Positions 30,681-61,802 are shown, numbered from the stretch's first letter. The stretch is 64,000 nucleotides of DNA from Acidimicrobiia bacterium (GCA_013812505.1 JACCTH010000043.1:3008-67007); one strand, 5' to 3'. Notes: generated by a model not told the origin, from the letters alone. A program made the numbers and translations.

Positions 30681-30774
30681 TTGGTCGGAGCACTCACCTG
30701 CTTCTCGCTTCCCCCCAGATCCAAGTAAATCGACGCTTTCCCGGGCGAGAAACAGAAACCTATCGTGCGGGGCT

Positions 30775-36256: not shown

Positions 36257-36299
36257 CTTGGGCTTTTTAGCCACTCAAGGCGCCTAGAGTTTCTCTGGG

Positions 36300-38683: not shown

Positions 38684-39238
38684 TCAGGGCTGCTTGCGAA
38701 ACAGGCCCTTTACCCAGGAGACAAGGCTTGTCAAGAAGAGCCGAAAGGGTTTGACATCAGCCGCCTTTATCTCCGAGGCCGCCGCCTCGGAGGGGGCTGC
38801 CATCTTGGCTTCGAGGCAGCCGGCAAAGTCGGTGATGAGCCGGCGGCTCATCTCATTGATCAGACCGGTGCGACCGAACTGGGCGGCGGGGCCTGCAAGG
38901 GTGATGTCGGCATCGATCTTGACGTTGGTGCCTGAGCCAGCGGCGGTGAGGAAGTAGTTCACCTTGACCTGTCCGCGGCTTCCACCCCGTTTGTCGACTC
39001 CTTTGCCGTCGATAAGAGCGGTGCGGTTGGCGGGGTCAGAGGTGACGTTGGCTTCGCCCTCGAAAGTTGCCGCGATCGGGCCGAGCTTCACTGAGATGTT
39101 GCCGGCGTACACCCCTCCGCCTTTGTCCTCGGTGAGGGTCGCACCCGGCAGGCACTCGGCGACGGCAGGAACGTCTTGAAACTGCTCCCAGACCGCCTCG
39201 ACCGGCCGATCGACAGTGAACTCCTGGGTGATCTTCAT
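38684..39238 (-). CDS. coxG: SRPBCC-fold CoxG-like protein
   Basis: MKITQEFTVDRPVEAVWEQFQDVPAVAECLPGA...GNISVKLGPIAATFEGEA is the CoxG pattern. ATG 39238 chosen. Confidence 0.78.
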   Translation of the reverse strand: MKITQEFTVDRPVEAVWEQFQDVPAVAECLPGATLTEDKGGGVYAGNISVKLGPIAATFEGEANVTSDPANRTALIDGKGVDKRGGSRGQVKVNYFLTAAGSGTNVKIDADITLAGPAAQFGRTGLINEMSRRLITDFAGCLEAKMAAPSEAAASEIKAADVKPFRLFLTSLVSWVKGLFRKQP

Positions 39239-39245
39239 CGGCTCT

Positions 39246-40292: not shown

Positions 40293-40304
40293 ACTTAGGC
40301 GGGT

Positions 40305-40775
40305 CTAGTGGCCGGTGTCACCGCCGAGCAGATCGAGCGCATGCGACAGCACCGCTGACAGCGCCTCGAAACCCTCCTCGACGGCTCGCGGGCTGCCGGG
40401 CAGGTTGACAATCAAGGAGGACCCTTTCACCCCAACCACGGCACGGGACAAGGCGGCCATCGGAGTCGATTCGAGCCCTTTGCTCACGAGAAGATGGCTG
40501 AGACCGGGAACGACGCGCTCGACCACCTGCATGGTCGCCTCGGGCGTGACATCACGCGGTCCGAGACCCGTGCCACCGGTGGTCATGATCAGGCGGGCAT
40601 CGACAGCGAGCCTCTGGAGAGCTTGAGTTATCGCCTCGATCTCGTCGGGCACGACCTCGTGGTCGGTCACCTCGAAGCCGGCCCTCCCCAAGAGCTCGAC
40701 TAAGAGCTCGCCAGAAGCGTCTTGACGAGTTCCAGCAGTCACCCCATCAGAGACGGTGACCACCGCCGCCCTCAC
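40305..40775 (-). CDS. mog: MogA/MoaB-type molybdopterin adenylyltransferase
   Basis: AAVVTVSDG...[16 protein letters not shown]...LPGSPRA. GTG 40775 forms a GTGA overlap with the upstream stop. Confidence 0.82.
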
Positions 40776-41635
40776 GAAACGAAGAACGTTTCCGGGTCGG
40801 GTGGGATTGGAATCCCGCGGGCGAGGGCGAAGCGGAACACCACAAACAGGATCACCACCGCCGCGACCAAACCCCAACTGAACCGTCGGGCCGTCGTGTG
40901 TGGGTCGTGTTCGACGGCTTTGCTCCCAGGTGCAGACAAAAGCGTCGCGGCTGTGAAGAGACCAAAGAGCGGGATGGCGGACACGAGCCCGCTACCGGTG
41001 TCGGGCACGAAGAACAACACCGCCAGCAAGGCACCGGCCAGACCGCCTCCCAAACCGATCCGCGCTACGAAGCCGACACGCCGCGGCGGGGTGGCGATCT
41101 CACTGCGCGAAGTGGCGAACGCCAGAAACGCCGGGGCCGCAGCCAAGGAGACCAAGAGCAGGCCAATTGCTCCACCCACTCCAACAACCATGTCGATCCC
41201 CGCCGGCAGATCGAAGTGGGTCAAGGCGAGAGCAACGTCGCTCTGTCTGTCGACCCCCGCCAGCGCCATGGGCACGAATCCTTGCCGGAAGCAGTGCAGG
41301 ATCAGCCAGAGCACGCAAAGACGGGCCGGGTCGTGGCGGCGACTAGCCGGATAGATGGCGAGGAAGGACGCTCCGACAATCAGGGCGGCGAGAGCGCCGC
41401 CGGCGAGGGCCAGCGGGTTGTCACCAGTGAGGAACTCAACCCGGTCGTGGTAGATGATCGGGTCCCGGTCGACGAGCCAGCCCACGATGAATCTGCCAAG
41501 CGAGTCGGCGAGGACGGCGATGACAATCCCAACGGTGGAGGCAAGGGCCGAATTGACGAGCAAGGTCACCCCGGTCGGGCGGTCACTCCCGTCGACAATT
41601 GTGGTCAGCCGCTGCTCGGCGATCGTTGCAGGCAT
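40772..41635 (-). CDS. Polytopic membrane protein, unknown function
   Basis: 287 aa with about 7 hydrophobic segments. No recognisable motif. Confidence 0.6.
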
Positions 41636-41665: not shown

Positions 41666-42757
41666 TCAAACGGTTTCCAAGTCCTCGAGACTTTCCGATT
41701 CGATGACGTCGTGGCGGCTTATGACAGTCGAGATCACTGCCTGGATAGTGGCGGTGAGCGGCAGAGCCAGAATGGCGCCGACGCCTCCCAGCAGGCTGGC
41801 CCCTGCGATCACCGCCCCGATCGACACCGCCGGATGGATCGACATGGTTCGGCTGGTGATCCTCGGGGCGATGAGGTAGTTCTCTAGTTGCTGGTATCCG
41901 ATGAGCGCCACCACTACCCACAAGCCTTTGATCGGGCTCACCGCCATCCCCGCAATCGCCGGCAGGACGAGACCTAGATACGTACCGACGACGGGGATGA
42001 ATTGGGAGATGACACCCATCCAGACGGCCAGCGGAAGGGGCGAGGGGACCCCGATGATGGCCAAAGCTCCCCAGGTGAAAAATGCGCACACGATCGCCAA
42101 CAGTGCCCGCGAGTAGACGTATTGACCTGTCTTCTCGACTGCCGTGTCCCAGGTCGAAAGCGCCCGCTCTTGCCGTTTGGCGGAAAGAGTGGAAAGGAGC
42201 AACCGCCGCCAGGTCGGGCCTTCGGCGAGCAGGTAGTAGCCAAAGAGGGTGACGGATGCGAGTTGGAAGATGAGACCGAAGACCGTGTTGCCGACCGCCA
42301 AGAGCCCCCCGGCCACCTGCGACCCGTACTGCTCGATTAGCGAGCCCAGGTCCGAGAAGTCGGCCCCGATCTCTGGGACAGAGAGCTCGAGGCCAAACGT
42401 GGCGTTCGCCCAGGTCGTGAGCGATTCGGCATAACCCGGCAAGTTCTCTATCAGCATTGTGCCTTGGGTGACCAAAACCGGCACGAGGAGGAAGAGAAAA
42501 CCGGCAAAGAGGACCCCGGAGGCGGCGAACACCACCGCGGCGGCAACCCGCCGGCGCCAGTTTCGCTTGACCAGAGCCTGCACGGCCGGTTCGAGGGCCA
42601 CCGCGAGGAAAAGCGCCAGGAACACGAAGTAGAGAAGGGTGCGGATCTGGTACGTGATCCAAAGGGCGACAACGGCTAGGAGCAGAACGCCGACCACGAT
42701 CCAAACTGCACGAGCCAGCCAGTCGGGCGGCCTTTTCCGATTGGGGAGTGCTACCAC
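41666..42757 (-). CDS. AI-2E (PerM/UPF0118) family transporter
   Basis: 363 aa. The topology and the C-terminal region FIPVVGTYLG...GLWVVVALIGYQQLENYLIAPRI are typical of the family. Confidence 0.8.
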   Translation of the reverse strand: MVALPNRKRPPDWLARAVWIVVGVLLLAVVALWITYQIRTLLYFVFLALFLAVALEPAVQALVKRNWRRRVAAAVVFAASGVLFAGFLFLLVPVLVTQGTMLIENLPGYAESLTTWANATFGLELSVPEIGADFSDLGSLIEQYGSQVAGGLLAVGNTVFGLIFQLASVTLFGYYLLAEGPTWRRLLLSTLSAKRQERALSTWDTAVEKTGQYVYSRALLAIVCAFFTWGALAIIGVPSPLPLAVWMGVISQFIPVVGTYLGLVLPAIAGMAVSPIKGLWVVVALIGYQQLENYLIAPRITSRTMSIHPAVSIGAVIAGASLLGGVGAILALPLTATIQAVISTVISRHDVIESESLEDLETV

Positions 42758-42784: not shown

Positions 42785-45478
42785 TCAGCGGCGTTTGCGG
42801 CGCATCAGCCGCTGCAGGGTTTCCGACTCTGAAAGCACCTCGGGCTTCTGACCCGAAGCCGCCGCCTCCTCTTTGACCGTCTCCACCCGCTTCTTTTCCC
42901 GGGTACGCGCCGTCACCATTCCTTCGCGCCAAAGATCCACATCACCGGCGGTGAACACGAGCCGGCGCATCGCCACGTCAACCAGGAAGAGGGCTAGCGC
43001 CATTGCGGCCAGCCACGGCCAGATCGAAATCTCAGCGCGACCCTGTTCGGGAGCGGGATCGAAAATCGAGGCGATGTCGGGATTGAGGCGCCCACCGGTC
43101 AAGCTCGTCAGGTCGTTGCCGAGGGTGGGGTCGGGCTCGCGGAAGGCGAACTCCTCTTCATAGGCCGAAACCGCCCCCGAACCCGAGGTCACCTGGGAGC
43201 CGTCCGGGTTTTGTTGCGTGACTGCCACCCAGTAGGCGCCGGCCGGTCCGAGCGGGGCCGACCCGGAGAACTCCGACTCGGATGTGCGAGTCAAAGGGAC
43301 GACACTGAGCTGACCATCGGGACCTCGCACCCGGGCCGTGGCGGTGCTGTCCAAGTCGGCACCCACCGCCGAATACCGGATTTGGAGCTGGCCGTCTTCG
43401 ACAAACGTGACCGGAGGGTTGTCACGGCCGGCGGGGAGGACGTCACGGACCACGTTGCCCCAAAAATCGGAGTATCCCTCCCAGTCGACCCATTGGGTCA
43501 GCCAGCGAGCGGTGGCATCCGAGGTCCAGGCCGTCGCTCTTCCGAGCCCGCGCTGCCAGGTCGCCAGCAACGGGTCGGCTTGGCCGATCTCCATCAGCAC
43601 CGACGCTGTTCCCTTCGCCTTGGTGAGGACATAACCAAGGAGCGGTGGGGACTCAACGAGCTCAGCCGTCACCGGGGAAGGAGCGGAGAGAACCGGAAAG
43701 AAAGTTCCCTCGGTGGCAAGGTTGCGAGCCACTGTCAGCGTCTCCTGGACAAAGATCTCGGGAATTGCCTCGAGATCCTCGCCGGCGTAGTAGCGGCCCC
43801 CGCCCAGCTCAGCCATCCGCTCAAGAGTTGTGCCGGGACCCTCACCCGTGCCGAGCACGGAGAGGGTGACTCCGGCGTCGGCGATCTCGCGCGCGATTGG
43901 AAGCAAGTTGGCGTCGCTCGGGTCCCAACCGTCGGTGAAGAGAACGATGTGACGGAGTTGCTCGGGTGCTCCAGCCAGCTCCGCCAACGCCACCTCGAGG
44001 GCATTGGAGATCTCAGTGTCGCCGTTGGCGGTGATGCCGCTGAGGGCATCGGCCGCATCAGTGATCCCCGACCGCTCCTGGAGGGGAATTACCCAGTCGG
44101 TGCCGGAGGTAAAGGTCAACACGCCCACCCGATCGGAAGCCGAAAGAGCCTCAATCGCCAGCTCAGCTCCAGCCCGGGCGATATCGGTCTTGACGACTCC
44201 GGTGTTGACGGCGCTGCCCATGTCGCAGTGGCAGGCGCCCATCGACCCGGAGGTGTCGATCACGAGCACTTCCGCCACCGGCTGGCGACGCACGAGGTCG
44301 TCGGGGTTCGAGGAGACCGGCAGAACCGCCTCGAGTGGAGTCTGGTGATAGTCGCCGAGCCCGAAGGAGCGGTCACCCCCAATCACGACTAGGCCACGAC
44401 CCAGCTCCTCAACGAAGGCCGCCAGCGCTTCAGCGTCGTCGGTGTCGGGGCGATCGAAGTTGACCAGGATCACCGCGTCGTAATTGAGCAGCTCGGCCGC
44501 AGTGGGGATCGAACGGCGTTCCTCGACGTCGATCCCGCCTGCAATCAATGCGCGGGATAACGCGTCGGCTTCACCATCGACTCCCTCGACCACCGCGACC
44601 TTGGCCGGGCCGAGGATGCGGGTTATTCCCTCCGCCTGGTTGTTCTCGGCTCGAGTGTCGAAACCGGCCTCGACCGTTGCCGCGACCGAGAGGAACCCCG
44701 ATCCGGTTCCCGCGAGCTCGACCGTGATTTCGTTGCGGCCCGAAACCAGGTCGACTTGGATCAGTTGCTCTTCGCCACCGCTCTCGACGATGAGCGTGGC
44801 GCTGCCGGCTTGGTTCGATCGGATCACCACCGTGGCGTCGACGCTGTCGCCTTCGCGCACAACGGCAGGCAACTGCACGCTCTCCACCAACGCGTCGGCA
44901 CTCCTCGAGGCGTCCAACTCAACAATGTCGAGGGCGATCCCAGCCTCCGCCAGGCGCCGGGCCGCGGCTCGTGCGTCGCCGGTCGTCGGCACCAGATCGG
45001 TCAGAAGCACGACCCGTCTCGATCCTTCGCTGGGCATCAGCGCGGCGATTGCGTCCAGAGCAGAGGCGAGGTCGGTGGCGGAGTCGTCGGGGTTCGTTCG
45101 GATTGGGCCGGGCTGGCGATCGATACGGAAGGCCGAGTCGAGCTGGGTATTGCGCCCGAACACCCCGATGGCGGTCCGTTCATCGCCCCTCGCGGCGGCG
45201 AGCGCAGCGGCGAGGAAAGCCTCTTGGTCGGCCGCGGCCGCGCTGGAGATGGAGGCCGATCGATCAAGAAGGAAGAGCACCGAACGCTGGTCGACCGCTC
45301 GGGTGAGGATCGGCTGGGCGGCGGCCAGGACGAGAGCAGCCACCGCGACCAAGCGGATCACCACCGCCCACCGATGCTGGCGTCGAGGAACGGTCCGCCC
45401 GCCGCGCCGGGCGATCAGCCAAATGAGGGCCAACCCAGGCAGAAGCGCCACCAACCACCAGGGGTTGGCAAAGGTCAC
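42785..45478 (-). CDS. Double-TM-anchored protein with two VWA domains flanking a GATase1-like domain, C-terminal TM
   Basis: The N-terminus FANPWWLVALLPGLALIWLIARR is BatA-N-like. MIDAS motifs DRSASIS and DTSGSMG. Middle part AVILVNFD...LVVIGGDRSFG. GTG 45478 forms a GTGA overlap with the upstream stop. Confidence 0.82.
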   Translation of the reverse strand: MTFANPWWLVALLPGLALIWLIARRGGRTVPRRQHRWAVVIRLVAVAALVLAAAQPILTRAVDQRSVLFLLDRSASISSAAAADQEAFLAAALAAARGDERTAIGVFGRNTQLDSAFRIDRQPGPIRTNPDDSATDLASALDAIAALMPSEGSRRVVLLTDLVPTTGDARAAARRLAEAGIALDIVELDASRSADALVESVQLPAVVREGDSVDATVVIRSNQAGSATLIVESGGEEQLIQVDLVSGRNEITVELAGTGSGFLSVAATVEAGFDTRAENNQAEGITRILGPAKVAVVEGVDGEADALSRALIAGGIDVEERRSIPTAAELLNYDAVILVNFDRPDTDDAEALAAFVEELGRGLVVIGGDRSFGLGDYHQTPLEAVLPVSSNPDDLVRRQPVAEVLVIDTSGSMGACHCDMGSAVNTGVVKTDIARAGAELAIEALSASDRVGVLTFTSGTDWVIPLQERSGITDAADALSGITANGDTEISNALEVALAELAGAPEQLRHIVLFTDGWDPSDANLLPIAREIADAGVTLSVLGTGEGPGTTLERMAELGGGRYYAGEDLEAIPEIFVQETLTVARNLATEGTFFPVLSAPSPVTAELVESPPLLGYVLTKAKGTASVLMEIGQADPLLATWQRGLGRATAWTSDATARWLTQWVDWEGYSDFWGNVVRDVLPAGRDNPPVTFVEDGQLQIRYSAVGADLDSTATARVRGPDGQLSVVPLTRTSESEFSGSAPLGPAGAYWVAVTQQNPDGSQVTSGSGAVSAYEEEFAFREPDPTLGNDLTSLTGGRLNPDIASIFDPAPEQGRAEISIWPWLAAMALALFLVDVAMRRLVFTAGDVDLWREGMVTARTREKKRVETVKEEAAASGQKPEVLSESETLQRLMRRKRR

Positions 45479-47283
45479 GACGTCACCACCTTCCGCCGGG
45501 GAAGGAACGGCCGCTGGTGGCCCACCCACCATTCAATCGCCATCAGCGCCAAAGCCAGGGCGATAACCCACGGCGCCCATTCCCTGATCCGGACCGAGGC
45601 CTCTTCGGCCGCGGTGACGGCGCCGGTGGTGGCGATGTCCCGGCTGGCCCCGGCCGATTCGTCGGCGACAAATGTTCGCACTGCGACCGGCCCCCCGGTG
45701 ACGGCGCCCTCGGCGTCGATATAGGACACTTCGTAGACGCCGGGCTGATCGGTGTCGGCAAACTGCGCTGATCCTTCGACCAACTCGCGAACCTCGCCAC
45801 CGGGCATGGTCACCCGGGCCAACGAGCCTGCCGGAGTGGCAAGGCCAATGGGGGTCCCGGCGGCATCGGTGGAGGCGTTGATCGACGTGGCGCCGGCCAG
45901 CCAGCTCAAGATCCGGGCGCCCAGGATGGGAAAGCCCACCTGAACGGGCAGGTTGGACTTGGTGATGTCGAAAGTGAAATAGGCAACTCGCTGTCCGTTG
46001 ATCTCACCGAGCAGGATCAAAGGGACGTCGCCGGCGCGCACCAACGTCAGCCAGCGCGGGGCGACGACAACTTGCGCTTCGCCGACAACCAACCCTGAGA
46101 GGTCGACCGCATCGAGGATCGGCTCTCCGGGCCGCTGATAGGTAACAGCCAAGTTGCCCGCGAATTGGCTGGCGGTCACACCTTCGGGGGTGGCTTCGGG
46201 GGCGATGAGCCAGGTCGGACGATCGATCGTCGGCAACGGACCGCCGTCGGAGATGACAATCGCGGGGGTGCCTTCGCCCTGGTTGGTGAAACCGGGCACC
46301 GCATCGACCAACGCCTCGAGGAAGGGCGAGCCCTCCCCCAGCACGGAGACGAGCTGTTCGGGCGCCGAGCCCACAATCAACGTCGCGGAGTCGTCGAGCG
46401 GCAGGGAGTCGGCGTTGTCGAGCAGCCGGACTGTCAGCCGGTCGCCGGGGCCGGCGTCGATCGGGGTGGTCTCACGAGCCGAACCTTGCGCCGGGACTTC
46501 CAGCTCGATCGAACCGGCCGGAAGATCGTTGACCGCCATCTCCGCTCGCACGGTTCGTGTTTCCGCTCCGTAGTTGACAAGGTTTAGAAAAGCTCGCGTG
46601 GTTCCCTCGGTCGAAGGCGCGAGACTCCAAGCCGCCACCGCCAGGTTGTCGCCGAAGTCGTCGTAGCGGAGCATCTCGGCTCCTTCCACCGGTTCCTCGG
46701 GCAAGGGTTGGCTGCCTCCGTCGGTGAGCAACAGGACGCTGGTCGGTCGATCAGGGGTGGCGAGCCCGCGAGCCAGACGCACCGCTCCGGAGAGATCGGC
46801 GACGCCCCCGCCCGCTTCGAGCGAATTGATCGCCTCGGTGACCAACGCCGGGTCGCGGCCAAAAGCGAGCAGCACCCGCGGGTTCGGACCGGCTTCGATG
46901 ATCGAAACCTGGTTCGCCTCCGAGAGGTCGCTGACCAAGGAGAGCGCCTGCGTCTTCGCGGTCTCGAGCCGGCCCGCCATCCCCATCGACCCCGAGGTGT
47001 CAAAAACCAACGCGGTGTGGGGACCGAGCAGCGTTCGCTCGCGGTAGAAAGGCCGGGCAAGGGTGAGGACGAAGGCGGCGAGGACCGCCAGTTGGAGGAG
47101 CAACAAGGGAGTCCATCGGAGCTTTTGCCAGGGAACGGCCGACGACACCGGGATCTCGGCCTTCTCCCACAGCATGATGCTCGGCACCTCCACCCGGGGC
47201 CGGCGGCTTCGCAGCATGTAAAGGACGATGAGCGGCCCGGCCAATGCCGCCAGGCCGAAGCCGGCGGGTATCAAGAAACTCAT
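45475..47283 (-). CDS. BatA-like VWA protein (N-terminal double-TM aerotolerance-regulator-type domain)
   Basis: MSFLIPAGFGLAALAGPLIVLYMLRSRR, MIDAS DTSGSMG, LLLTDGG, plus a ~350-aa uncharacterised C-terminal region and a C-terminal TM. Confidence 0.82.
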   Translation of the reverse strand: MSFLIPAGFGLAALAGPLIVLYMLRSRRPRVEVPSIMLWEKAEIPVSSAVPWQKLRWTPLLLLQLAVLAAFVLTLARPFYRERTLLGPHTALVFDTSGSMGMAGRLETAKTQALSLVSDLSEANQVSIIEAGPNPRVLLAFGRDPALVTEAINSLEAGGGVADLSGAVRLARGLATPDRPTSVLLLTDGGSQPLPEEPVEGAEMLRYDDFGDNLAVAAWSLAPSTEGTTRAFLNLVNYGAETRTVRAEMAVNDLPAGSIELEVPAQGSARETTPIDAGPGDRLTVRLLDNADSLPLDDSATLIVGSAPEQLVSVLGEGSPFLEALVDAVPGFTNQGEGTPAIVISDGGPLPTIDRPTWLIAPEATPEGVTASQFAGNLAVTYQRPGEPILDAVDLSGLVVGEAQVVVAPRWLTLVRAGDVPLILLGEINGQRVAYFTFDITKSNLPVQVGFPILGARILSWLAGATSINASTDAAGTPIGLATPAGSLARVTMPGGEVRELVEGSAQFADTDQPGVYEVSYIDAEGAVTGGPVAVRTFVADESAGASRDIATTGAVTAAEEASVRIREWAPWVIALALALMAIEWWVGHQRPFLPRRKVVTS

Positions 47284-48140
47284 ACCAGCGCCTCGGTCCG
47301 CGAGAGGGCGCTCAGCACGTTCATTGGAGCATCGTCGGTTGCCGGAACGAGGACATAGTCGACACCCGCCCGCCGCGCTCGTGCGGCAGCTTCGGTGGCA
47401 AAAGCCTCGAGCGCCGCCCGGTAACGCCGCATCGCCTCTTCCGAGGTCGACACCTCGACTTCGCCCCCGGATTCGGAATCAGCCAAACGCAGGTCGCCGG
47501 CCAAACCCGGATCAAGCTCCTCCTCGCCGAGAACATGGAGGATGATCCCTCCGGCGCCGATCCCGAGGCCGTCGAGAGCGGACCCAAAGTCGGGGCTGAG
47601 AAGGTCGGAGACGAGGATGAGGGCGCCGCGTGTCGTGCCTTCGCCGACCAGCTTGCGCAATGTAGGAGCGAGCTCGCCTCCGCCCCCGGTCGGCAGTTGT
47701 TCCAGCCAGGCTTCGAGCTGCGGCCAGCGGGAGAGATGCCGCCCGGCGGGACCGACCTGCAACGACGTACCTCCGACCGCGTAGACCTGAACCCGATCGC
47801 CGCCCGCCAGCCCGAGGTAAACAATCATCCCCGCCAGGACCTTTCCGATCTCAGCCTTGCGGTAGAAACCCATCGATTTCGAGACATCCAGAACCACGCG
47901 CAGCGGGAGCTCTTCTTCCGCTTCGAATTGGCGGACCAGGAGCACGCCCAGCCTTGCCCAGAGGTTGTGATCGATTCGGCGAAAGTCATCGCCCGGGACG
48001 TATTGGCGGTAGTCGGCGAAGTCGAGGCTTTCCCCTTTGTGGCGCGAACGGTGCCGGCCCGCCCATTGCGCGATCACTCGCCGGCGAGTCACGAGGGAAA
48101 GCCGCTCGAGACGGCCGCGCAGCTCGGCCGGGAGCAGCAT
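47280..48140 (-). CDS. DUF58 family protein
   Basis: GESLDFADYRQYVPGDDFRRIDHNLWARLGVLLVRQFEAEEE is the DUF58 hallmark. Confidence 0.85.
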   Translation of the reverse strand: MLLPAELRGRLERLSLVTRRRVIAQWAGRHRSRHKGESLDFADYRQYVPGDDFRRIDHNLWARLGVLLVRQFEAEEELPLRVVLDVSKSMGFYRKAEIGKVLAGMIVYLGLAGGDRVQVYAVGGTSLQVGPAGRHLSRWPQLEAWLEQLPTGGGGELAPTLRKLVGEGTTRGALILVSDLLSPDFGSALDGLGIGAGGIILHVLGEEELDPGLAGDLRLADSESGGEVEVSTSEEAMRRYRAALEAFATEAAARARRAGVDYVLVPATDDAPMNVLSALSRTEALV

Positions 48141-49108
48141 CAGGAAACTGGTTGTGGCGAAGGGTGGGCTTCGAGCACCTCGGAAACGATTTGGTCGGCG
48201 CGGACGCCGTCGGCCAGTGCCTCGTATCCGAGAACCAGCCGGTGCCGGAGCGACATCGGGGCGACCTTCCAGATGTCCTCTGCTGCCAGGTTGGGGCGGC
48301 CGGCGAAGAGGGCAAATGCCTTGCCGCCGAGGATGAGGGCTTGGGCTCCCCGGGGGCTGGCGCCGTTGCGGACATAGCGCTTCACCAGCTCGGGTGCTTT
48401 CTCGCTTTCCGGATGGGTCGCTTCCACCAGCGTCGCCGCGTAGTGAAGGAGATGCGACCCCGCGGGAAGGTCGCGCACCAACTCCGACATCTCGACGATT
48501 GCCGCCCCGTCCATGACCGCGTTCGGCTCCGTCTCGGGTCCGGCCGTCGTTCGTTTGAGGATCTCGACCACGTCGTCTGCCGGCGGGAACCCAACCAGCG
48601 CCTTGAACAAGAAGCGGTCGAGTTGCGCTTCTGGCAGCGGATAGGTGCCTTCCTGCTCAATCGGATTCTGGGTGGCCATCACCAGGAATGGCCGGGGCAG
48701 TTGATGCGTCTCCCCGCCCAGGGTCACCCGTCGTTCTTGCATCGCTTCGAGCAGGGCGGACTGAGTCTTCGGCGTGGCGCGGTTGATCTCGTCAGCAAGG
48801 ACGAGGTTGGCGAAGATCGGGCCTTGGTGGAACTTGAAGTCGTTGCCTGTGAGGACCTTGGTGCCGAGGATGTCGGCTGGCATCAAGTCGGGAGTGAACT
48901 GGACCCGGCCGAACTCGACGTCGAGCACTTTCCCCAACGTCGCCAGGAGCTTGGTCTTGCCCAGGCCCGGCACCCCTTCGAGGAGAACATGGCCTTCGCA
49001 AATCGCGGCGACCAGCACGGTCTCGACGAGATCTTTCTGCCCGACGATGACCTTGCCGACCTCGGCGCGAGCGGCGGCTAGGTGGGTGGCGAACTCTTCT
49101 GGGTTCAT
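48140..49108 (-). CDS. moxR: MoxR-family AAA+ ATPase
   Basis: HVLLEGVPGLGKT, LLADEINRATPKTQSALLEAMQE and ATQNPIEQEGTYPLPEAQLDRF. Confidence 0.92.
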   Translation of the reverse strand: MNPEEFATHLAAARAEVGKVIVGQKDLVETVLVAAICEGHVLLEGVPGLGKTKLLATLGKVLDVEFGRVQFTPDLMPADILGTKVLTGNDFKFHQGPIFANLVLADEINRATPKTQSALLEAMQERRVTLGGETHQLPRPFLVMATQNPIEQEGTYPLPEAQLDRFLFKALVGFPPADDVVEILKRTTAGPETEPNAVMDGAAIVEMSELVRDLPAGSHLLHYAATLVEATHPESEKAPELVKRYVRNGASPRGAQALILGGKAFALFAGRPNLAAEDIWKVAPMSLRHRLVLGYEALADGVRADQIVSEVLEAHPSPQPVS

Positions 49109-50736
49109 GGCTCCAACTCCGTGAAGTATTGGCGGACGAGGTCGGCCAAATCGGCCGGGATGACCATACGGTCTAGCGAGTCGAGAGCCGTGTTTCGATA
49201 GTCCGTGAACCGATCGGTGTAGCTCTGCAATGGGACGTTTTCGAGACCCTGGCCGGTCGCGGTCCCGAGCGGGTCGCCCGGAGTCGTGCCGCCGGTGAGA
49301 TCGACTCGAACTTCGTCGCCCAAGCCGGCCTCGACCGGGTCGAAGACGCTGCTGCGGCTCGGGTCGCGGCTCGGGTCGTGATCTCCGCTGCCGCTGCCGA
49401 CGGTGCCCGACCCGGTGCCCCCCGAAGTCGAGCCGGTGCCGCTTTGCCCACCAGCACCCGCACCGCCACCGGCGCCACCCTGTCCCTGACCTTGTCCCTG
49501 GCCTTGGCCTTGTCCCTGGCCCTGACCTTGTCCCTGACCCTGACCTTGTCCCTGGCCCTGACCTTGTCCCTGGCCCTGACCTTGCCCTTGGCCCTGTCCC
49601 TGGGCTTGGCCTTGGGCCTGGGCGTCGCTTAGCCGCTGTTGGGCGTCGCGGACGTCGGCCTGGGCCTGGGCACGGTTGGCCGCGCCTGCGGCGGCGGCAT
49701 TGCTGGCGTCGAGCTGGCCTGCGGCGTCCGCCAAAGCCTCGGCTGCGGCGGCAGCCGCGTCGGGGTTTGCGGCCGCCTCGCCCAGAGCCTGCGCGGCACC
49801 GGCGAGAGCATCGGAAAGCTCCTGGTCGATGCCGGCCAGGTCCTCGGCCCGGGCCGAAAGTTCGGCCGCCGCGGCTGCCATCTCGGCGGGGCTGGCGTTG
49901 GCTAGACCCGCCGCCAGATTGCGCAGTTGCTCGGCTGCCGACGCTCCCGTGGCGAGGGGATTTTGCTGCAAGCGGCGCTCGAGACCGGCCAGAGCTGTTC
50001 GCTGCGCCAGTTCAGCCGGATCGGCCTGGCTCGCTAGTTCCTGGCGGGCCTCGCCCAATGCCGCTACTGCTTGTTCCAACGTCTCGGCTTGCGCCAGCTC
50101 GGCCAGCAGCGCTTCGAGAGTCTCTTTCACCTCGGGGGTGGCTTCGGCGGCGGCTTCGGTGAGCCGATCGATCTCGTCCTGGATGAGCTGTTGTTGCGCT
50201 CGCCGCTCGGCCAGCGCCACATCGGCCGCCGACGGGACCAGCGCCATGAGCAAGGTCGCGGCAAGGGCCACAATCACCAGCCGTGGCAGCCAGCCCCGCG
50301 GAACCACCCGGACCAGCCCGTCGAGGCTGCGGCCGCTCGCCCAAACGTCTGCTGCTCGAAGCTGAAGATCCTCGTACTCGTGTCGTTCGTCGAGAGCACC
50401 GAGCTCGAGCGCGGTGGAAATCCGGTCGAAGCCGCCCAATCGGCGATCGACCGAGAGGGCGGCGCCCGCCGGGGAGGAGCGCCGCCACAACGCCAACCCC
50501 ACTCCAACCAGGACCGCCAAACCGATCACCCCAAAAGCGACAGGTTCGGCCCAGGGGATCACCGTGTAACGAGCGACGCCCACAAGGATTGAGGCGAGCG
50601 CTGCTGCGACTCCGACCGCGACCAGGATCGTCTGCAGGAGGCCCGCGACCAGCAGACGGCCCCGAGCTCGTCCCACCAAATCCCGAACGCCAGTGGGGAC
50701 CGTGGGGTTGCGAAGAGGGCTCATAGTCTTAGACAT
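49105..50736 (-). CDS. Membrane-anchored Ala-rich coiled-coil protein with long (Gly-Gln)n tract
   Basis: Three TM segments in the first ~170 aa, then an A/E/Q/L-rich region, a (GQ)n run, a G/S/T-rich tract and a short conserved-looking C-terminus. Start is ATG 50736 or 50724. Confidence 0.7.
   Translation of the reverse strand: MSKTMSPLRNPTVPTGVRDLVGRARGRLLVAGLLQTILVAVGVAAALASILVGVARYTVIPWAEPVAFGVIGLAVLVGVGLALWRRSSPAGAALSVDRRLGGFDRISTALELGALDERHEYEDLQLRAADVWASGRSLDGLVRVVPRGWLPRLVIVALAATLLMALVPSAADVALAERRAQQQLIQDEIDRLTEAAAEATPEVKETLEALLAELAQAETLEQAVAALGEARQELASQADPAELAQRTALAGLERRLQQNPLATGASAAEQLRNLAAGLANASPAEMAAAAAELSARAEDLAGIDQELSDALAGAAQALGEAAANPDAAAAAAEALADAAGQLDASNAAAAGAANRAQAQADVRDAQQRLSDAQAQGQAQGQGQGQGQGQGQGQGQGQGQGQGQGQGQGQGQGQGQGQGQGGAGGGAGAGGQSGTGSTSGGTGSGTVGSGSGDHDPSRDPSRSSVFDPVEAGLGDEVRVDLTGGTTPGDPLGTATGQGLENVPLQSYTDRFTDYRNTALDSLDRMVIPADLADLVRQYFTELEP
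49479..49623. repeat. Hexanucleotide microsatellite (ctgKcc/ttgKcc units) encoding (GQ)n
   Basis: About 145 bp of near-perfect 6-nt periodicity on the plus strand (ccctgaccttgtccctggccttgg...). It lies inside the 543-aa CDS. Confidence 0.9.
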
Positions 50737-51763
50737 TGCGTCTCCGTTTCGTGAGGAAGATCCTGCGAGCCGGTGCCCGAACTACAAAGGCTGCCCGCAG
50801 CAGGGCGAGAGCGGTGATGGCGGCGTAGATGATCAGCGTGCGCGTCCAAACCGGACCGCGCCTGACCCGAACTGCAAGCTCGTCCTGTCCCGGCGCGGGA
50901 AAGGGCTGTATGACCGCCATTTCCGCGGCGAAGCCAACCCCAAACTGCCCGCCGAAGCCCCCTCCCATCGAGATCGCGGGTGTCGACACCCCCTGGCGCG
51001 CATAGACGATCGCGTCGAACGCCGCGAAGGGGGTGAGGGTGTAGTCGGTGGGGACACGCAAAGGCTGACGGATGGCATCGACCATGCCGACATAGGGATT
51101 GAGCCACGACGAATAGAACTCGCGGCCACGAGCCGGGATCAAAGCCTGGTCGGAAGGACGAGCCAAGAAGAGCTCGCCAAGAAAGATCGCCAAGCTCAAG
51201 AAGCCGATGATGAAGGCAATCGCGTACGAGCCGGCAACTGCTCCGCGACTGGAACGAGCGCGCGAGGACACGGCGATGGCGACGCTCCCCAGGGTGATCG
51301 CGGTGGCGAGCATCATCGCCAACGCGGCGCCGATGTCACCGGCCGACATTCCGCCAAAGAGCAGCGGGATCGCCACGACCGGTCCGACAGCGATGAGCAG
51401 CAGGAGGAAGTAGCCGATCGAAGAGGAGAGCTTGCCGAGCACCAATTGGATTGGGCTCAACTGCGTCACCTGGAGCAGAGGCAGGGTTTGGCGTTCGCGT
51501 TCGGTGACAATCGACAACGCGGTCACCCCCGGGACAATCAGGACTACGGCGGTCATCATCAACACCGCCATCGCCTGAAACAGGAATCGGCCCATGTACT
51601 GGGTGGCGATGAGCCGGCCGAGAACCTGGTTGGCGACCTGCTGGCTGACCAGATAGGCAACGTAGCCGATCATGCCGACGCCGATCGTCCAGGCAAATAG
51701 GAACCAGGGGGCGCGCCGGCTGCGGAAGCGCTCCATCACCTCGCGGCGCAAGACCGGGTTCAT
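50729..51763 (-). CDS. ABC-2/NosY-GldF-like permease with C-terminal extension
   Basis: TERERQTLPLL motif after TM2, six TMs, then a ~110-aa extension and a final TM. ATGA overlap with the ATPase gene. Confidence 0.78.
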   Translation of the reverse strand: MNPVLRREVMERFRSRRAPWFLFAWTIGVGMIGYVAYLVSQQVANQVLGRLIATQYMGRFLFQAMAVLMMTAVVLIVPGVTALSIVTERERQTLPLLQVTQLSPIQLVLGKLSSSIGYFLLLLIAVGPVVAIPLLFGGMSAGDIGAALAMMLATAITLGSVAIAVSSRARSSRGAVAGSYAIAFIIGFLSLAIFLGELFLARPSDQALIPARGREFYSSWLNPYVGMVDAIRQPLRVPTDYTLTPFAAFDAIVYARQGVSTPAISMGGGFGGQFGVGFAAEMAVIQPFPAPGQDELAVRVRRGPVWTRTLIIYAAITALALLRAAFVVRAPARRIFLTKRRRNV

Positions 51764-52701
51764 GAGTCGTTGCTTTCGCTGCCCGTGATACTCAAGAAGA
51801 GCTCCTCGAGGCCGGCGACCTCGAGCCGCCAGTCATAGATACGGCGACCGGAGCCGATCACGAGCGCCAGGATGCGGGCCGAGTCTTCGTCTTCGCCAGT
51901 CAGGACGAAACGCAGGCGCCCTCGCTCCACATCGACTTCGCTCACCTCGGGCTGTCCTGACAGGATGGTGGCCACCTCGTCGACTTCTTCGTCGGGGGTG
52001 CGCAGAGTGATCCGGCGATTGGCGGTGAGGGTCCGGCGAATCTCGTTCAGATCGCCGGACGCCTTGACCTTGCCTTCGTCGATGACGGCCAGGTGTGAGC
52101 AGATGCCCTCTAGCTCGGAGAGGATGTGGGAAGAGATGATCACTGTCTTTCCCATTCGCGACAGTTCGGCGATCAGCTCGCGGAGATGAACTCGGGCGCG
52201 AGGGTCGAGGCCGGAAGCCGGCTCGTCGAGAACAAGAAGCTGGGGGTCATGGATCAAGGCGCGGGCGAGTGAGAGGCGTTGCTTCATTCCCCGCGACAAG
52301 GTGTTGACATCTGCGTCCGCCTTGCCTTCGAGATCAACGAGGCCCAAGAGGTCGGCGATCAGCGCCGGACGTTTGGCGGCTGGGACTTTGGTGGCCGCAG
52401 CGAAGAAGTCGAGATACTCCGTGGTGGTTAAGTTTTCGTAGAACCCGAACACGTCGGGCATATAGCCGAGGACTTTGCGTACCGCTCTCGGCTCGACCTG
52501 GGGGTCCTTGCCCGCCACTTCCACCTTGCCCGCGTCGCGGGCGAGCAGGCTCGAGATGACCAGCATCGAGGTCGTTTTGCCGGCACCGTTAGGCCCGATT
52601 AACCCATAAATCGACCCCTCGGGAACGTCGAGGTCGATGCCGTTCATCGCCATCACCTCGCCGTAGCGCTTCTCTACCCCTTCCAGGATGGCGATTCCCA
52701 T
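51760..52701 (-). CDS. ABC transporter ATP-binding protein
   Basis: GPNGAGKTT, LSRGMKQRL and LLVLDEPASGLD. Confidence 0.92.
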   Translation of the reverse strand: MGIAILEGVEKRYGEVMAMNGIDLDVPEGSIYGLIGPNGAGKTTSMLVISSLLARDAGKVEVAGKDPQVEPRAVRKVLGYMPDVFGFYENLTTTEYLDFFAAATKVPAAKRPALIADLLGLVDLEGKADADVNTLSRGMKQRLSLARALIHDPQLLVLDEPASGLDPRARVHLRELIAELSRMGKTVIISSHILSELEGICSHLAVIDEGKVKASGDLNEIRRTLTANRRITLRTPDEEVDEVATILSGQPEVSEVDVERGRLRFVLTGEDEDSARILALVIGSGRRIYDWRLEVAGLEELFLSITGSESNDS

Positions 52702-54785
52702 CAGCTCACCATTTCCAGGGCGAAGGAATAGGGGGAGAAACCCGACTCGACAAAAACGTCATCGTCGTTGGCAACGCGCAGTATCACCTCTCCACGATCG
52801 TTGCGGAACCGGGCGAGGTCGATCACGTCCTGATCGGCCACCTCGACGAAGGTACGTCCCTCCCAGTCATACATATCGAGCAGGGCGGGCACTTCCCCAA
52901 AGTTCTGGTTCACCACCAGGGTCGGGTTGGCGATGCCGGCGGGGACTTCCCAACCCATCATCGCACTTCGCCCCTGCACATAGACATAGCCGGGTCCAAA
53001 GTCGATGAAGCTGGCGTCCTCGGCATCGAGCAGCTGCGAAGAGAGCGCGTTGCCTTCGACGGCCATCACTTCGGCCAAGTCGATCGGGACCACGACCAGG
53101 CTGGTGCCGGTGGCCTCCACACGGTCTCCGTCGACGACGAGCGAGACCGCGAGCTGATCGGTGAAACCGAAGAAGTAGGAATCGTGGTCGGTGGTCAGCG
53201 CGGCCGCCACCTGGCTCAAAGGACCAAGCCGGTTCCAGATGAACGGATCCTCCCAAAGCTGCATTTGATTGATGACCGCGTCGCCGACGGTGCCAAACTC
53301 GTTGAAGCCGTTCTGCCCTGGGACCAGCGAACGCGAGCCACTGCCGCCCGGCTCCAATGGATCATCTTCGACAACCACTCGACCGCGGGCGACCACTCCC
53401 CAGCTCCAAAAGCTGAGGTCGGTGGTGTTGGACACTTCCACTTCGAGCTGATTGCCGTCGGCCTTGGCATCAACTTGGGGGATGTCTGCTACCGAGCCTT
53501 GCCACCGGCTGGACAGGCCGGCCGCTCCCAGCTCACCCAGCTCGAAGCTGTAGCCGCCGGCGGGATCGACGCGGGCGTAAACCGAGGCCGTGTTTGGCAT
53601 GTTGAAGTCGGCGGTCGCCTCGGCCGGCACGGTGTCCCAGCCGTCAGCGGTGTTGAAGGTCCGATTTCCTTCACCACCGACGACCAGGACCGAGGCGGTG
53701 CGTCCTTCGACGCCCGTCTCGTTGGCAACGACTACTGACGCATGACTGACAACGTGCTCCTGGAGCCGCTCCCGGCCCGCGGTCCAGAAACCTAAGACGC
53801 CCGCGAGTGCCAGCACCGGGACTGTCGCCCAGGCGAACTCCCGCCGTCCGATTTTCTTCAGAATGGCGAAGTTGACTGGCCCGACAAGCACCGCATAGCC
53901 GAGCAAGGCGCCGAGGAGCCAGGGCAGCGAAGGCACCCGTTGGTCGCCACCGCTGATCGCGGACTGCATCAGTTGGATCTCGGGGCTTTGCCAGGTCTCG
54001 CGCGCTGCAAAGCGATATGGCACGGGTGAGAAGACGTGGGCCCATTGCTCATCGCCGAGCTGGGCGAGACCGTCGAGGGCCATGACCCAACCAGAGCCAA
54101 AGGGAAAGTTGCCCGTCCCGGTGGGAAGGTCGACCCCGAGCGCGCCGAGGTCCGCGGTGTCAACCACCAAGCGGCCGCCGCGACTTAGCCAGCTCACCGA
54201 CGCTTCTGGGAGCTCGGTTGGGTCGGCGAGCACCAAGTAACGCGCTGGGTCGAGCTCCTGACCGAGCTGATCGGCTGAAATCCCGACCCCGACCACGTCA
54301 CGTTCGGTGACCGCGGAGATCGATTCGTCGATGGTCTTGACCAGCTCATCGGGACCTACCACGGCAACGATCAGTTGGTCAGTCGCGACTTTGAGCGAGA
54401 GGTTGAGCGTGGCCGCCGGATCCTCGCTGGCTTCGGAAAGAAGGCGTAGTCGTACTTGGGGGTTGCCGACGGGGAGGCCGAGGCGAAGGTTATAGACCTT
54501 GGACCCACCGGCAGGTACCTCGATCGGGAGCACCTGGGTGACGGCTCCGAGCTTTGCTTCAAGGAGCCCGGCGAAAAGGACGTCGGTAGACACGGTGACG
54601 TCGACATCCATCGGCGTGAACCCGTCGACGAAACCTGCGAGCCCCGCTTCGGCTTCCATTCGGGTCGGCGGATCAGGGTTGGCCGGATCAGGGTTGGCCG
54701 GATCAGGGTTGGTCTGGGCGCCGAGCGGCAGGCCGATGCTCGCAAAGATGAAGGCGGCAGCAACTACGGCGAGCCGGCGGGGCAT
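52701..54785 (-). CDS. Large secreted/membrane protein of unknown function, first gene of the MoxR-VWA-ABC operon
   Basis: Signal-like start MPRRLAVVAAAFIFASIGLPLGAQT (ATG 54785), an NPDPA x3 repeat, and two central TM segments (LPWLLGALLGYAVLVGPV, WATVPVLALAGVLGFW). No recognisable catalytic motif. Confidence 0.68.
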   Translation of the reverse strand: MPRRLAVVAAAFIFASIGLPLGAQTNPDPANPDPANPDPPTRMEAEAGLAGFVDGFTPMDVDVTVSTDVLFAGLLEAKLGAVTQVLPIEVPAGGSKVYNLRLGLPVGNPQVRLRLLSEASEDPAATLNLSLKVATDQLIVAVVGPDELVKTIDESISAVTERDVVGVGISADQLGQELDPARYLVLADPTELPEASVSWLSRGGRLVVDTADLGALGVDLPTGTGNFPFGSGWVMALDGLAQLGDEQWAHVFSPVPYRFAARETWQSPEIQLMQSAISGGDQRVPSLPWLLGALLGYAVLVGPVNFAILKKIGRREFAWATVPVLALAGVLGFWTAGRERLQEHVVSHASVVVANETGVEGRTASVLVVGGEGNRTFNTADGWDTVPAEATADFNMPNTASVYARVDPAGGYSFELGELGAAGLSSRWQGSVADIPQVDAKADGNQLEVEVSNTTDLSFWSWGVVARGRVVVEDDPLEPGGSGSRSLVPGQNGFNEFGTVGDAVINQMQLWEDPFIWNRLGPLSQVAAALTTDHDSYFFGFTDQLAVSLVVDGDRVEATGTSLVVVPIDLAEVMAVEGNALSSQLLDAEDASFIDFGPGYVYVQGRSAMMGWEVPAGIANPTLVVNQNFGEVPALLDMYDWEGRTFVEVADQDVIDLARFRNDRGEVILRVANDDDVFVESGFSPYSFALEMVS
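54670..54714. repeat. 15-bp x3 tandem repeat (ggatcagggttggcc) encoding NPDPA x3
   Basis: Units at 54670, 54685 and 54700; the third is slightly diverged. Confidence 0.85.
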
Positions 54786-54837
54786 GTCAGTCAGACGTGC
54801 GGCCAAGCGCTCCGGTTCCAAGAAGACCTTTGCGGGG

Positions 54838-55449
54838 CTACTTCTTCGAGCTTTGGAAGTAGGGGTCAGAACCGGACGCATGATCCGTTACATCGACTAC
54901 TTCGCTCAGTTCCGAGATCGACTCTTTCAGAATCCGCTCGATGCCCTGTTTGAGGGTCACCGCCGCCATGCCGCAGCCCTGGCAGCCGCCGCTCAGCTTA
55001 AGGTAGGCGATCGTCCCGTCCACCGACACCAACTCTGCTCGCCCCCCGTGGGCGGCGATGGCTGGGTTCACTGCCTCGGCGATCACCTGGGAGACTTGTT
55101 CGGCGAGCGGACCTTCGAGGGTGCCTTGGGGGGCGGCCATCGCCGGGCTCGCGAGCGGCCGGTTGGGATTATCCATCGCCAGGCCGTCGGGACCGATCGA
55201 TAGCGAGGCGCCCCGCAGGGGTTCGACGCTTTGTTGGGGGATCAGGATGGCAAGGTCGCCATGCCGTTCGAGATGATGGCCTTCGTCTTCGTCGTCGATC
55301 GGCACGAAGGCCAACTCGTAGGCGTACTGGCCCTGGCGAGTGCCGGTGACCTCGATCAACAAGGCCACCTCGGACTCCCCTGGCTCCTGGTCGCGCAGCC
55401 CGATGATCATCCCGAGGGCTTCCGTCGCGACGGAGAGCACGTTTTCCAC
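54838..55449 (-). CDS. NfuA/NifU-like Fe-S cluster carrier
   Basis: C-terminal Nfu domain: IAAHGGRAELVSVDG..AYLKLSGGCQGCGMAAVTLKQGIE. N-terminal IscA-like fold without Cys. Confidence 0.78.
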   Translation of the reverse strand: MENVLSVATEALGMIIGLRDQEPGESEVALLIEVTGTRQGQYAYELAFVPIDDEDEGHHLERHGDLAILIPQQSVEPLRGASLSIGPDGLAMDNPNRPLASPAMAAPQGTLEGPLAEQVSQVIAEAVNPAIAAHGGRAELVSVDGTIAYLKLSGGCQGCGMAAVTLKQGIERILKESISELSEVVDVTDHASGSDPYFQSSKK

Positions 55450-61732: not shown

Positions 61733-61802
61733 GCGGTAGGGATCGGCGAGCCAACTAGACACCTACCGGAATTTCGATACTGACGAAGCGTAGGATCAGG
61801 GC

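Follow-up and report, generated by a model that had tools for sequence, protein, structure and literature searches.

A conserved operon joining an ABC-2 transporter-like module to MoxR, DUF58 and VWA genes in Actinomycetota and Chloroflexota

Eight consecutive genes on the minus strand of a contig from an Acidimicrobiia bacterium raise the question whether two gene sets, an ATP-binding cassette (ABC) ATPase and permease pair and a Bat-like set of MoxR, DUF58 and VWA genes, work together as one machine of the cell envelope. The stretch that we analysed, here called the window, is 64,000 nucleotides (nt) long (GCA_013812505.1 JACCTH010000043.1:3008-67007), and the genes, numbered 1 to 8 in their order of transcription, occupy 42785-54785 (Table 1). 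Our analyses indicate that they form one real operon, the order of which recurs across two phyla. With a little more than even confidence, we propose that the eight genes encode one membrane-embedded, envelope-associated machine with two cytoplasmic ATPases and a role in envelope assembly or maintenance; the specific mechanism of such a machine is much less certain.

From direct checks of the translations and junctions, all eight open reading frames (ORFs) were found where the original prediction had placed them, and all seven start/stop junctions were as it had described. One nucleotide is shared by genes 1 and 2 (TGATG, 52699-52703, overlap at 52701) and by genes 5 and 6 (TGATG, 48138-48142, overlap at 48140), and overlaps of 4 nt join genes 2 and 3 (ATGA, 51760-51763), genes 4 and 5 (ATGA, 49105-49108), genes 6 and 7 (ATGA, 47280-47283), and genes 7 and 8 (GTGA, 45475-45478, with a GTG start at 45478; the longest ORF would overlap by 58 nt). 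Genes 3 and 4 overlap by 8 nt (ATGTCTAA, 50729-50736), and an alternative ATG at 50724 would leave a gap of 4 nt. The GTG start of gene 8 is supported because a database protein (P0304) is 100% identical over 897 amino acids (aa) and the same 4-nt overlap is seen in the gene calls of relatives (L083-L087, see below). Of all the starts, that of gene 1 is the least secure (ATG 54785, TTG 54806 or TTG 54821); its longest ORF, which stretches the longest-ORF extent of the run to 42785-54881, runs into the upstream NifU-like gene (stop at 54838). Signals that could split the unit internally were not above chance in consensus scans, with 9 terminator-like sites within the operon against 11.0 +/- 3.2 in shuffles and 3 promoter-like sites against 1.4 +/- 1.2, and no RNA family was matched in an Rfam scan of the operon region. 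Annotation of all eight proteins with the hidden Markov models of Pfam and NCBIfam agreed with the predicted domains, and the anatomy drawn from the window was essentially right; genes 1 and 4 match no curated family.

Table 1. Coordinates of the operon genes, of a repeat within gene 4, and of the adjoining genes in the window (TM, transmembrane segment)
Feature	Position	Strand	Description
Gene 1	52701..54785	-	694-aa envelope protein; signal peptide, two large domains, central TM hairpin
Gene 2	51760..52701	-	ABC ATPase, 313 aa, DrrA/GldA/NodI type
Gene 3	50729..51763	-	ABC-2 family permease, 344 aa, six to seven hydrophobic segments
Gene 4	49105..50736	-	543-aa all-helical membrane protein, three TMs at about 37-55, 66-84 and 153-171
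Hexanucleotide array	49478..49621	-	CCCTGG x24 (+ strand letters), encodes (GQ)n tract of gene 4; Tandem Repeats Finder
Gene 5	48140..49108	-	MoxR-type AAA+ ATPase, 322 aa, cytoplasmic
Gene 6	47280..48140	-	DUF58 protein, 286 aa, cytoplasmic, VWA-like
Gene 7	45475..47283	-	BatA-like, 602 aa; N-terminal double-TM anchor, VWA, C-terminal TM
Gene 8	42785..45478	-	897-aa membrane protein; double-TM anchor, two VWA, split GATase1-like, C-terminal TM
NifU-like gene	54838..55449	-	203 aa, NifU 2.1e-21 at residues 119-185; 16-52 nt upstream of gene 1
AI-2E family transporter	41666..42757	-	Starts 27 nt after gene 8

The conservation of this arrangement was surveyed with a gene 1 profile run against one genome per GTDB species, which returned 495 loci, of which the best 80 were fetched and compared with the window proteins by tblastn. 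In this gene-neighbourhood survey, synteny of the ABC and MoxR-VWA genes, on which the original prediction depended, was found across Actinomycetota and Chloroflexota. In 49 of the best 80 loci the ABC genes are followed, on their own strand and in unchanged order, by MoxR, and all eight proteins occur in order in 20 loci; seven further loci have all but gene 4 by tblastn, gene 4 being too divergent, and in tblastn-negative loci its slot is filled by a topologically equivalent three-TM protein of 550-840 aa. Among the 49 loci with at least ~7.5 kb of sequence downstream of the ABC gene (species-level genomes), MoxR is present in 43. Because the order recurs in 43/49 informative species-level genomes from two phyla, the operon is more than a chance arrangement. 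The carriers are Acidimicrobiia and other Actinomycetota together with Anaerolineae, Chloroflexia and Limnocylindrales of the Chloroflexota, nearly all of those seen are uncultured, and identities to the window proteins go from ~90% down to ~25-50%; no Planctomycetota were among the best 80 loci. Independent gene calls with precomputed Pfam domains recovered the same block in L083 (a 55%-identical actinomycete), L084 (75%), and L086 and L087 (~60%), and in the Anaerolineales contig L085 with one extra 201-aa gene before MoxR. The gene overlaps in L083-L087 are of 4 to 14 nt.

What the upstream half of the block encodes is clearest for genes 2 and 3, which together specify an ABC_tran ATPase and an ABC2_membrane permease, the combination by which an ABC-2 transporter is recognised. 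The ATPase (ABC_tran, PF00005, 4.2e-27, plus DrrA1-3_C) has intact motifs (Walker A GPNGAGKT, signature LSRGMKQ, Walker B LLVLDE), and the Walker motifs are kept in 67/70 loci. Its two best NCBIfam matches are both below their cut-offs: TIGR01188 (230 bits) and, second, GldA (TIGR03522, 205.6 bits against a cut-off of 402.6). The permease passes the Pfam cut-offs of ABC2_membrane_2 (PF12679, 1.4e-9, 38 bits, cut-off 27.2) and ABC2_membrane_3 (PF12698, 2.1e-9, 37.4 bits, cut-off 31.6) and touches GldF (TIGR03518) at 16.4 bits against a cut-off of 288.5. An extra region had been predicted for it and is indeed present, not at the C-terminus as supposed but as a loop of ~100 aa (201-303, predicted extracytoplasmic from hydropathy) between the fifth hydrophobic segment and the final TM at 304-322. 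Pfam found no substrate-binding protein to go with this ABC-2 architecture in the eight proteins.

Gene 1, the first partner of this module, has no Pfam or NCBIfam match. Its AlphaFold (AF2) model is confident (predicted local distance difference test, pLDDT, 86.6; predicted TM-score, pTM, 0.81) and consists of a signal-peptide helix, a beta-sandwich (41-130), an alpha/beta domain (138-240), two long helices (287-340) that form a hydrophobic hairpin, and beta-rich domains (344-690). A Foldseek search of the model against PDB gave generic immunoglobulin (Ig)-like and beta-sandwich matches only (TM-score <0.2), by which no fold could be assigned, and a profile of gene 1 relatives run against PDB sequences found designed Ig domains only. 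A word-based search returned 55 relatives, all without a name or Pfam domain and mostly from metagenome-assembled genomes (MAGs) of Acidimicrobiia. Judged by sequence profile, gene 1 belongs to a large unannotated family, because a profile search of 1.84 billion cluster representatives returned 5,140 representatives of 50% clusters at E<=1e-3 and 2,167 at E<=1e-10. The invariant residues (W289, L290, G302, P303, N305, L309, A318, W319, T321 and P323) cluster at 289-323, that is, in the hairpin and its short, positively charged loop; part of this hairpin motif served to find the loci, whereas the G-P-x-N part did not and is kept in all 80 fetched loci. A perfect 15-nt unit repeated 2.9 times (54669-54712) encodes, in frame, NPDPA x3 directly after the signal peptide.

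The sole recurring Pfam family among gene 1 relatives is DUF4350 (5/30 close and 7/42 distant relatives, best E 1.5e-6), with scores below the Pfam cut-off and no match in the window protein itself, and one of these matches maps to gene 1 residues 182-217, inside the alpha/beta domain. The account of this family in PMC5898192 links DUF4350 to GldG by HHpred, and NCBIfam has no GldG model match for gene 1. The DUF4350/GldG link of the alpha/beta domain is suggestive but weak. The Gld resemblances of genes 1 to 3 bring up a reading in which the operon encodes a surface-motility or adhesion apparatus analogous to GldA/GldF/GldG with the external VWA domains, which are classic adhesion modules, as adhesins. 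It would suit the wide occurrence of the cluster in Anaerolineae and Chloroflexia and the filamentous gliding habit of many Chloroflexota carriers. The Gld equivalog cut-offs are nevertheless all missed, the gliding genus Herpetosiphon is the one group without the MoxR half, genes 7 and 8 are membrane-anchored at both ends and thus ill-suited to a mobile adhesin, and Acidimicrobiia are not known as gliders; we consider this reading improbable.

A search for homologues of the second partner, gene 4, gave 100 proteins of 456-614 aa from Acidimicrobiia and Chloroflexota, to none of which a family is assigned, and gene 4 relatives were seen only in this operon context. Neither Pfam nor NCBIfam holds a family for it, scans of 35 relatives gave coiled-coil noise only, and Foldseek found nothing below E = 1 for its model. 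The AF2 model has a pLDDT of 78.8 overall and >90 for residues 11-380. Between TM2 and TM3 lies a helical, predicted cytoplasmic segment of 68 aa with the conserved motif A..D..LG...R..TALEL; TM3 is followed by helical repeats (170-381, predicted extracytoplasmic), a disordered Gly/Gln-rich spacer (385-501) and a two-helix C-terminal motif (506-540). The conserved positions in an alignment of relatives are A93 and D97 in the TM2-TM3 segment and Y513, P527, Y537 and F538 in the C-terminal motif, and the length range among relatives may reflect variation in repeat length. A kinship with the alphaproteobacterial Gly/Gln-rich membrane proteins (DUF4175 / TIGR02302) was unsupported, with one weak DUF4175 match and no TIGR02302 match in 35 relatives. 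An apparent fusion of gene 4 to MoxR in Chloroflexia loci was likewise dismissed as an artefact of stop-free off-frame sequence in GC-rich DNA; MoxR has a separate start in each locus.

The downstream half is of the Bat type, and its catalytic and metal ion-dependent adhesion site (MIDAS) motifs are intact. MoxR (gene 5; AAA_lid_2 7.5e-16) has its Walker A (GVPGLGKT) and Walker B (LVLADE) motifs, which are kept in 47/49 loci. Gene 6, directly after it, matches DUF58 (PF01882) at 3.2e-27 and has an intact DxSxS motif (DVSKS; kept in 45/45 loci), and no solved relative was found for it by sequence. Gene 7 matches BatA (PF07584) at 8.1e-11 (42.6 bits, cut-off 25.9), VWA_2 at 1.6e-13 and, weakly, TIGR02226; its predicted topology places the VWA domain (MIDAS DTSGS, kept in 37/37 loci) outside the membrane, followed by about 370 aa of unannotated extracytoplasmic sequence before the C-terminal TM. 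Gene 8 matches VWA_2 in two stretches, VWA, and GATase1_like (1.4e-16), with BatA at 17 bits below the cut-off of 25.9; its two VWA domains carry the motifs DRSAS and DTSGS, and a charged cytoplasmic tail of 62 aa follows the C-terminal TM. The VWA pair, the double-TM anchor and the C-terminal TM of gene 8 had been anticipated correctly, and the product is 897 rather than 898 aa. The supposed GATase1-like insert turned out to be the reverse: residues 331-397 correspond to the N-half and 590-679 to the C-half of solved GATase1-like proteins (phmmer against PDB), and it is VWA2 that is inserted into the GATase1-like domain. Of the five DxSxS motifs encoded in the operon, DUF58 and gene 7 have one each and gene 8 has three, of which two begin VWA domains; genes 7 and 8 have the VWA core alone in common by BLASTP. 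The two MIDAS motifs of gene 8 show no variation across 20 aligned relatives, the search having returned only close ones (at least 55% identity) and left other phyla unsampled. Directly after the VWA2 MIDAS (DTSGSMG), a Cys-His pair in GACHC (residues 416-417; 44228-44233, minus strand) is invariant in the same 20 relatives and may add a metal ligand or a site of redox sensitivity beside the MIDAS. A GATase1-like domain common to the gene 1 and gene 8 families was rejected at an hhalign probability of 1.3%.

MoxR genes also occur in conflict systems, and the MoxR protein of the window does match the bpMoxR model (5.6e-12, 45.6 bits); since ternary conflict systems of MoxR-vWA type exist (PMC7159879), an anti-phage or conflict function had to be considered. 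AAA_3 (PF07726) is, however, by far the better match (1.9e-63, 212.6 bits, cut-off 27). Pfam found no beta-propeller, effector or sensor domain in the eight proteins, and PADLOC found nothing for seven of them, its sole match being generic ABC similarity. The operon holds a stable position beside housekeeping genes in many Acidimicrobiia, and its base composition is close to that of the rest of the window. A conflict system thus seems to us highly improbable.

Topology was predicted from hydropathy and charge counts (positive-inside) only. By this criterion genes 7 and 8 would have their large domains outside the membrane, as would gene 1 (both of its large domains), gene 4 (its long C-terminal part) and the permease (its loop). 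On the inner side would be the ABC ATPase, MoxR and DUF58, together with the hairpin loop of gene 1, the segment of 68 aa in gene 4 and the gene 8 tail. The topology predicted for gene 7 agrees with that of BB0173, the BatA-like protein of Borrelia, in which experiments demonstrated three TM helices and placed the VWA domain in the periplasm (PMC5700661).

How such a set of proteins might act can be pictured as follows. Genes 2 and 3 would be an ABC-2 transporter-like module of the GldA/GldF class with genes 1 and 4 as dedicated partners: gene 1 as an accessory protein, the conserved TM hairpin of which probably docks on the permease, and gene 4 as a helical stalk, the long helical region and disordered Gly/Gln spacer of which could extend into the wall or across it. 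On the model of other MoxR/VWA pairs, the MoxR AAA+ ring and its cytoplasmic adaptor DUF58 may remodel or activate targets via the MIDAS site of the adaptor, candidate targets being the hairpin loop of gene 1 and those parts of genes 4 and 8 that are predicted in the cytoplasm. Genes 7 and 8 would present three intact MIDAS sites on the outer face, and these three outward sites together with the stalk and spacer of gene 4 suggest that a wall or surface component is bound. ATP hydrolysis by the ABC ATPase might then export an envelope component or mechanically drive the external domains, and MoxR-DUF58 might assemble or reset the VWA scaffold that binds this component. We infer in this a physical association of the two halves, their direction of action and a function in the envelope. 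The chaperone-assisted machine for envelope assembly or export that the original prediction envisaged fits the predicted topology and the genetics of related operons, and we carry it forward as a proposal.

Several observations weigh against a single machine, foremost among them that the block can come apart. Four Herpetosiphon genomes have a gene 1-like gene, the ABC gene and the permease gene, with no gene 4-like or MoxR gene within 8 kb. Paralogues in Acidimicrobiia (L031, L034 and L035) comprise a ~29%-identical gene 1-like gene and an ABC-2 permease gene without the MoxR half, and the L034 pair sits in the same MAG (LejiaC_62_17) as a full operon (L010); because Acidimicrobiia genomes carry this second pair, the gene 1/permease pair has been duplicated and has diverged within the lineage. 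In two Anaerolineae loci, genes 1-4 are followed by other genes to the end of the fetched sequence, in which the absence of MoxR is not established. Genes for an M3 oligopeptidase and a xylose-isomerase-like TIM-barrel protein stand between the gene 4-like gene and MoxR in some Anaerolineae (L043, 16119-18883; L055, 10134-12739), and a gene of the low-molecular-weight phosphotyrosine-phosphatase family stands between the ABC ATPase and the permease in others (L040, 12578-13009; L047, 12758-13558). Because of Herpetosiphon, the paralogue pairs and the Anaerolineae insertions, the block is composed of two separable halves, genes 1-4 and genes 5-8. The coupling that the original prediction called fixed is thus strong (43/49 loci) but not absolute. 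Besides, the operon type is known from genes alone and no substrate could be identified for it; the topological method and the sub-threshold DUF4350 scores given above count on the same side, as do the facts that Bat operons elsewhere work without an ABC module and that mutant phenotypes of the Bat type are inconsistent, with aerotolerance affected in Bacteroides and no oxidative-stress role in Leptospira (PMC3557215).

Such observations are the ground of the main rival, according to which two independent systems, an ABC-2 exporter (genes 1-4) and a Bat-like system (genes 5-8), share an operon and are co-regulated since both serve the envelope. In addition to the halves that occur apart and the unrelated genes inserted exactly at the gene 4/MoxR seam in L043 and L055, it can draw on MoxR-DUF58-VWA genes without an ABC-2 module in classical Bat operons and on plasmids, where our search found two distant VWA proteins next to MoxR (Ketogulonicigenium and Deinococcus), neither with an ABC-2 module. 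Two merely co-regulated systems fit less well with an order and adjacency kept across two phyla in 43/49 informative loci and down to ~25-50% identity, with a stop/start overlap at the seam itself (ATGA, 49105-49108), likewise seen in L083, L084 and other relatives, and with a gene 4 family seen only in this context. We regard the two-system explanation as credible and yet unlikely. The single machine is the reading that we retain, at slightly better than even confidence, on the strength of the tight junctions, the recurrent order, the kept motifs, the predicted topology, the DUF4350 link and the envelope phenotypes of related operons.

A bolder form of the single-machine proposal is that the operon represents a previously unrecognised class of trans-envelope machine in bacteria of monoderm lineages (Acidimicrobiia, Chloroflexota), in which an ABC-2 motor and a MoxR AAA+ motor work on one scaffold of outward VWA, GldG-like and stalk proteins as a dual-ATPase system for secretion or wall assembly. 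We put this forward as a tentative idea that is rather unlikely to hold in full. If it were true, it would give the first mechanistic handle on Bat-type MoxR/DUF58/VWA operons, and should the two halves form one complex, they would be an uncommon example of a membrane machine powered jointly by an ABC ATPase and an AAA+ ATPase.

The surroundings of the block vary from relative to relative, and the eight genes are for this reason taken as the conserved core. Upstream, the NifU-like gene recurs in Acidimicrobiia relatives (58-97% identity, gaps of 8-78 nt) and is absent in L083, a more distant actinomycete, and in L085 (Anaerolineales, Chloroflexota); as a lineage-specific neighbour outside the core, it may share a transcript with the operon in this lineage. 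Downstream of gene 8 come the AI-2E transporter (window and L084), UDG (L086 and L087), an opposite-strand PorA (L083) or a pyridoxal-phosphate (PLP) decarboxylase (L085). The AI-2E transporter was rejected as a ninth member, being kept only in the 75%-identical relative L084; a transporter of this family also follows the vWA-MoxR-DUF58 set on the Ketogulonicigenium plasmid (L082), which may be coincidence.

Further downstream (38684-41635, minus strand), CoxG-like, XdhC/CoxI-like and MoCF-biosynthesis genes and a 287-aa ORF without a family form a run of the molybdenum-enzyme or carbon monoxide (CO)-dehydrogenase maturation type, which is on the same strand as the operon and is conserved in L084. 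The CoxG, XdhC and MoCF genes, 2-4 kb downstream, together with the NifU-like gene directly upstream, invite the explanation that MoxR and the VWA proteins are a metal-cofactor insertion chaperone of the CoxD/CoxE or NorQ/NorD type for a nearby metalloenzyme, with the ABC module moving metal. MoxR/VWA pairs are established metal-insertion chaperones (PMC9976466, PMC13036017), and gene 8 relatives show faint VWA_CoxE matches (L083, L085 and L086). Against this explanation, the CoxG/XdhC genes are not conserved with the block (in L083 and L085-L087 the genes that follow are those named above), the MoxR protein belongs with AAA_3 (MoxR-proper) and with neither CoxD nor NorQ, the prediction puts the VWA domains of genes 7 and 8 outside whereas the VWA partner of the CoxE/NorD type is cytoplasmic, and the ABC-2 architecture comes without a substrate-binding protein. 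We judge a metal-insertion role very improbable.

The remainder of the window has a plus-strand signalling cluster (30631-37832) with a response-regulator receiver fused to a FAD-dependent disulfide oxidoreductase, a cyclic nucleotide (cNMP)-binding protein with a histidine-kinase-type ATPase domain, a 914-aa protein in which an adenylate/guanylate cyclase is joined to an NB-ARC (STAND) NTPase, and an HD-domain protein. A DUF222 protein, of a family typical of Actinobacteria, is encoded at 57816-59054 (minus strand), and three ORFs of 362-385 aa without a Pfam match at 59475-62891 (plus strand).

The interest of the operon lies in what it joins. Bat-type MoxR-DUF58-VWA operons are among the most widespread bacterial gene sets without a known molecular function, and the same applies to the GldAFG-type ABC set. 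That a single operon holds both together in two phyla, along with two protein families that lack annotation, one of them with thousands of members, points to the cell envelope as their place of action. The association narrows the question of Bat-type function and offers candidate pairings, in which the gene 1 hairpin would meet the permease and DUF58 the cytoplasmic segments of genes 4 and 8. In a full-text search, outside the reach of which most subscription journals lie, no description of an ABC-2 module joined to MoxR/DUF58/VWA genes and no characterised pathway onto which the cluster maps were found, and the pairing appears to be undescribed.

Among known systems, the downstream half is closest to the Bat or MoxR-proper operons, which have MoxR (AAA_3), DUF58 and a BatA-domain VWA protein in the same order followed by a second membrane VWA protein, have outward VWA domains (as in BB0173), and give envelope and stress phenotypes, with their molecular function unresolved. 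This kind includes RL3499-RL3502 (cmdA-D) of Rhizobium leguminosarum and bb0170-bb0176 of Borrelia. According to citations in PMC5700661 and PMC3893208, mutation of the R. leguminosarum operon, which encodes MoxR, DUF58 and membrane proteins, leads to defects of the envelope and of morphology. MoxR ATPases generally work with a VWA partner on the remodelling of a specific target (PMC3893208, PMC9976466 and PMC13036017). The MoxR-DUF58-BatA part of our operon is a member of this kind without BatC, BatD and BatE: Pfam found no TPR (BatC), BatD or SH3 (BatE) families in the operon and its flanks. It differs further in gene 8, a membrane VWA protein whose architecture departs from that of BatB, with two VWA domains and a split GATase1-like domain, in being joined to an upstream ABC-2 module and two unannotated membrane protein families, and in its hosts, Actinomycetota and Chloroflexota as opposed to the Bacteroidota, spirochaete and rhizobial hosts studied so far.

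The upstream half is of the ABC-2 kind and resembles GldAFG of Flavobacteria without being a member. In both, an ABC-2 ATPase and permease go with a large accessory protein that is membrane-anchored, lies mostly outside the cytoplasm and, if only weakly so in gene 1, is of the DUF4350/GldG kind, and for neither is a substrate known; the Gld set is required for gliding (PMC5682007). In contrast to it, none of the three window proteins reaches an equivalog threshold, gene 1 is set apart by its central TM hairpin and additional beta-sandwich domains, and the ABC set is coupled to MoxR/DUF58/VWA genes. A MoxR and vWA pair at the membrane with a multi-TM partner is also found in the operon of MoxR, DUF58(vWA) and a YebA-like transglutaminase (Zhang and Aravind, 2012, PMC3495828), which has been proposed to degrade membrane-proximal proteins; in our operon Pfam found no transglutaminase-like peptidase, and nothing suggests a protease.

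The closest published idea is the archaeal neighbourhood of arCOG01314 (DUF4350), which lies in operons with MoxR and vWA genes and was predicted to form a secretion or membrane-remodelling complex (Makarova, Galperin and Koonin, 2015, PMC5898192). Its vWA and accessory proteins are different (S-layer-like), no ABC ATPase or permease is listed in section 3.2 and Table 2 of that paper, and the archaeal DUF4350 protein is anchored by a C-terminal TM, whereas gene 1 is anchored by its central hairpin and has a weak DUF4350 assignment. What the two sets share is a MoxR-family ATPase, vWA proteins, further membrane proteins whose external domains are Ig-like and, as far as the weak assignment of gene 1 goes, an extracellular protein of GldG-like character that is anchored in the membrane.

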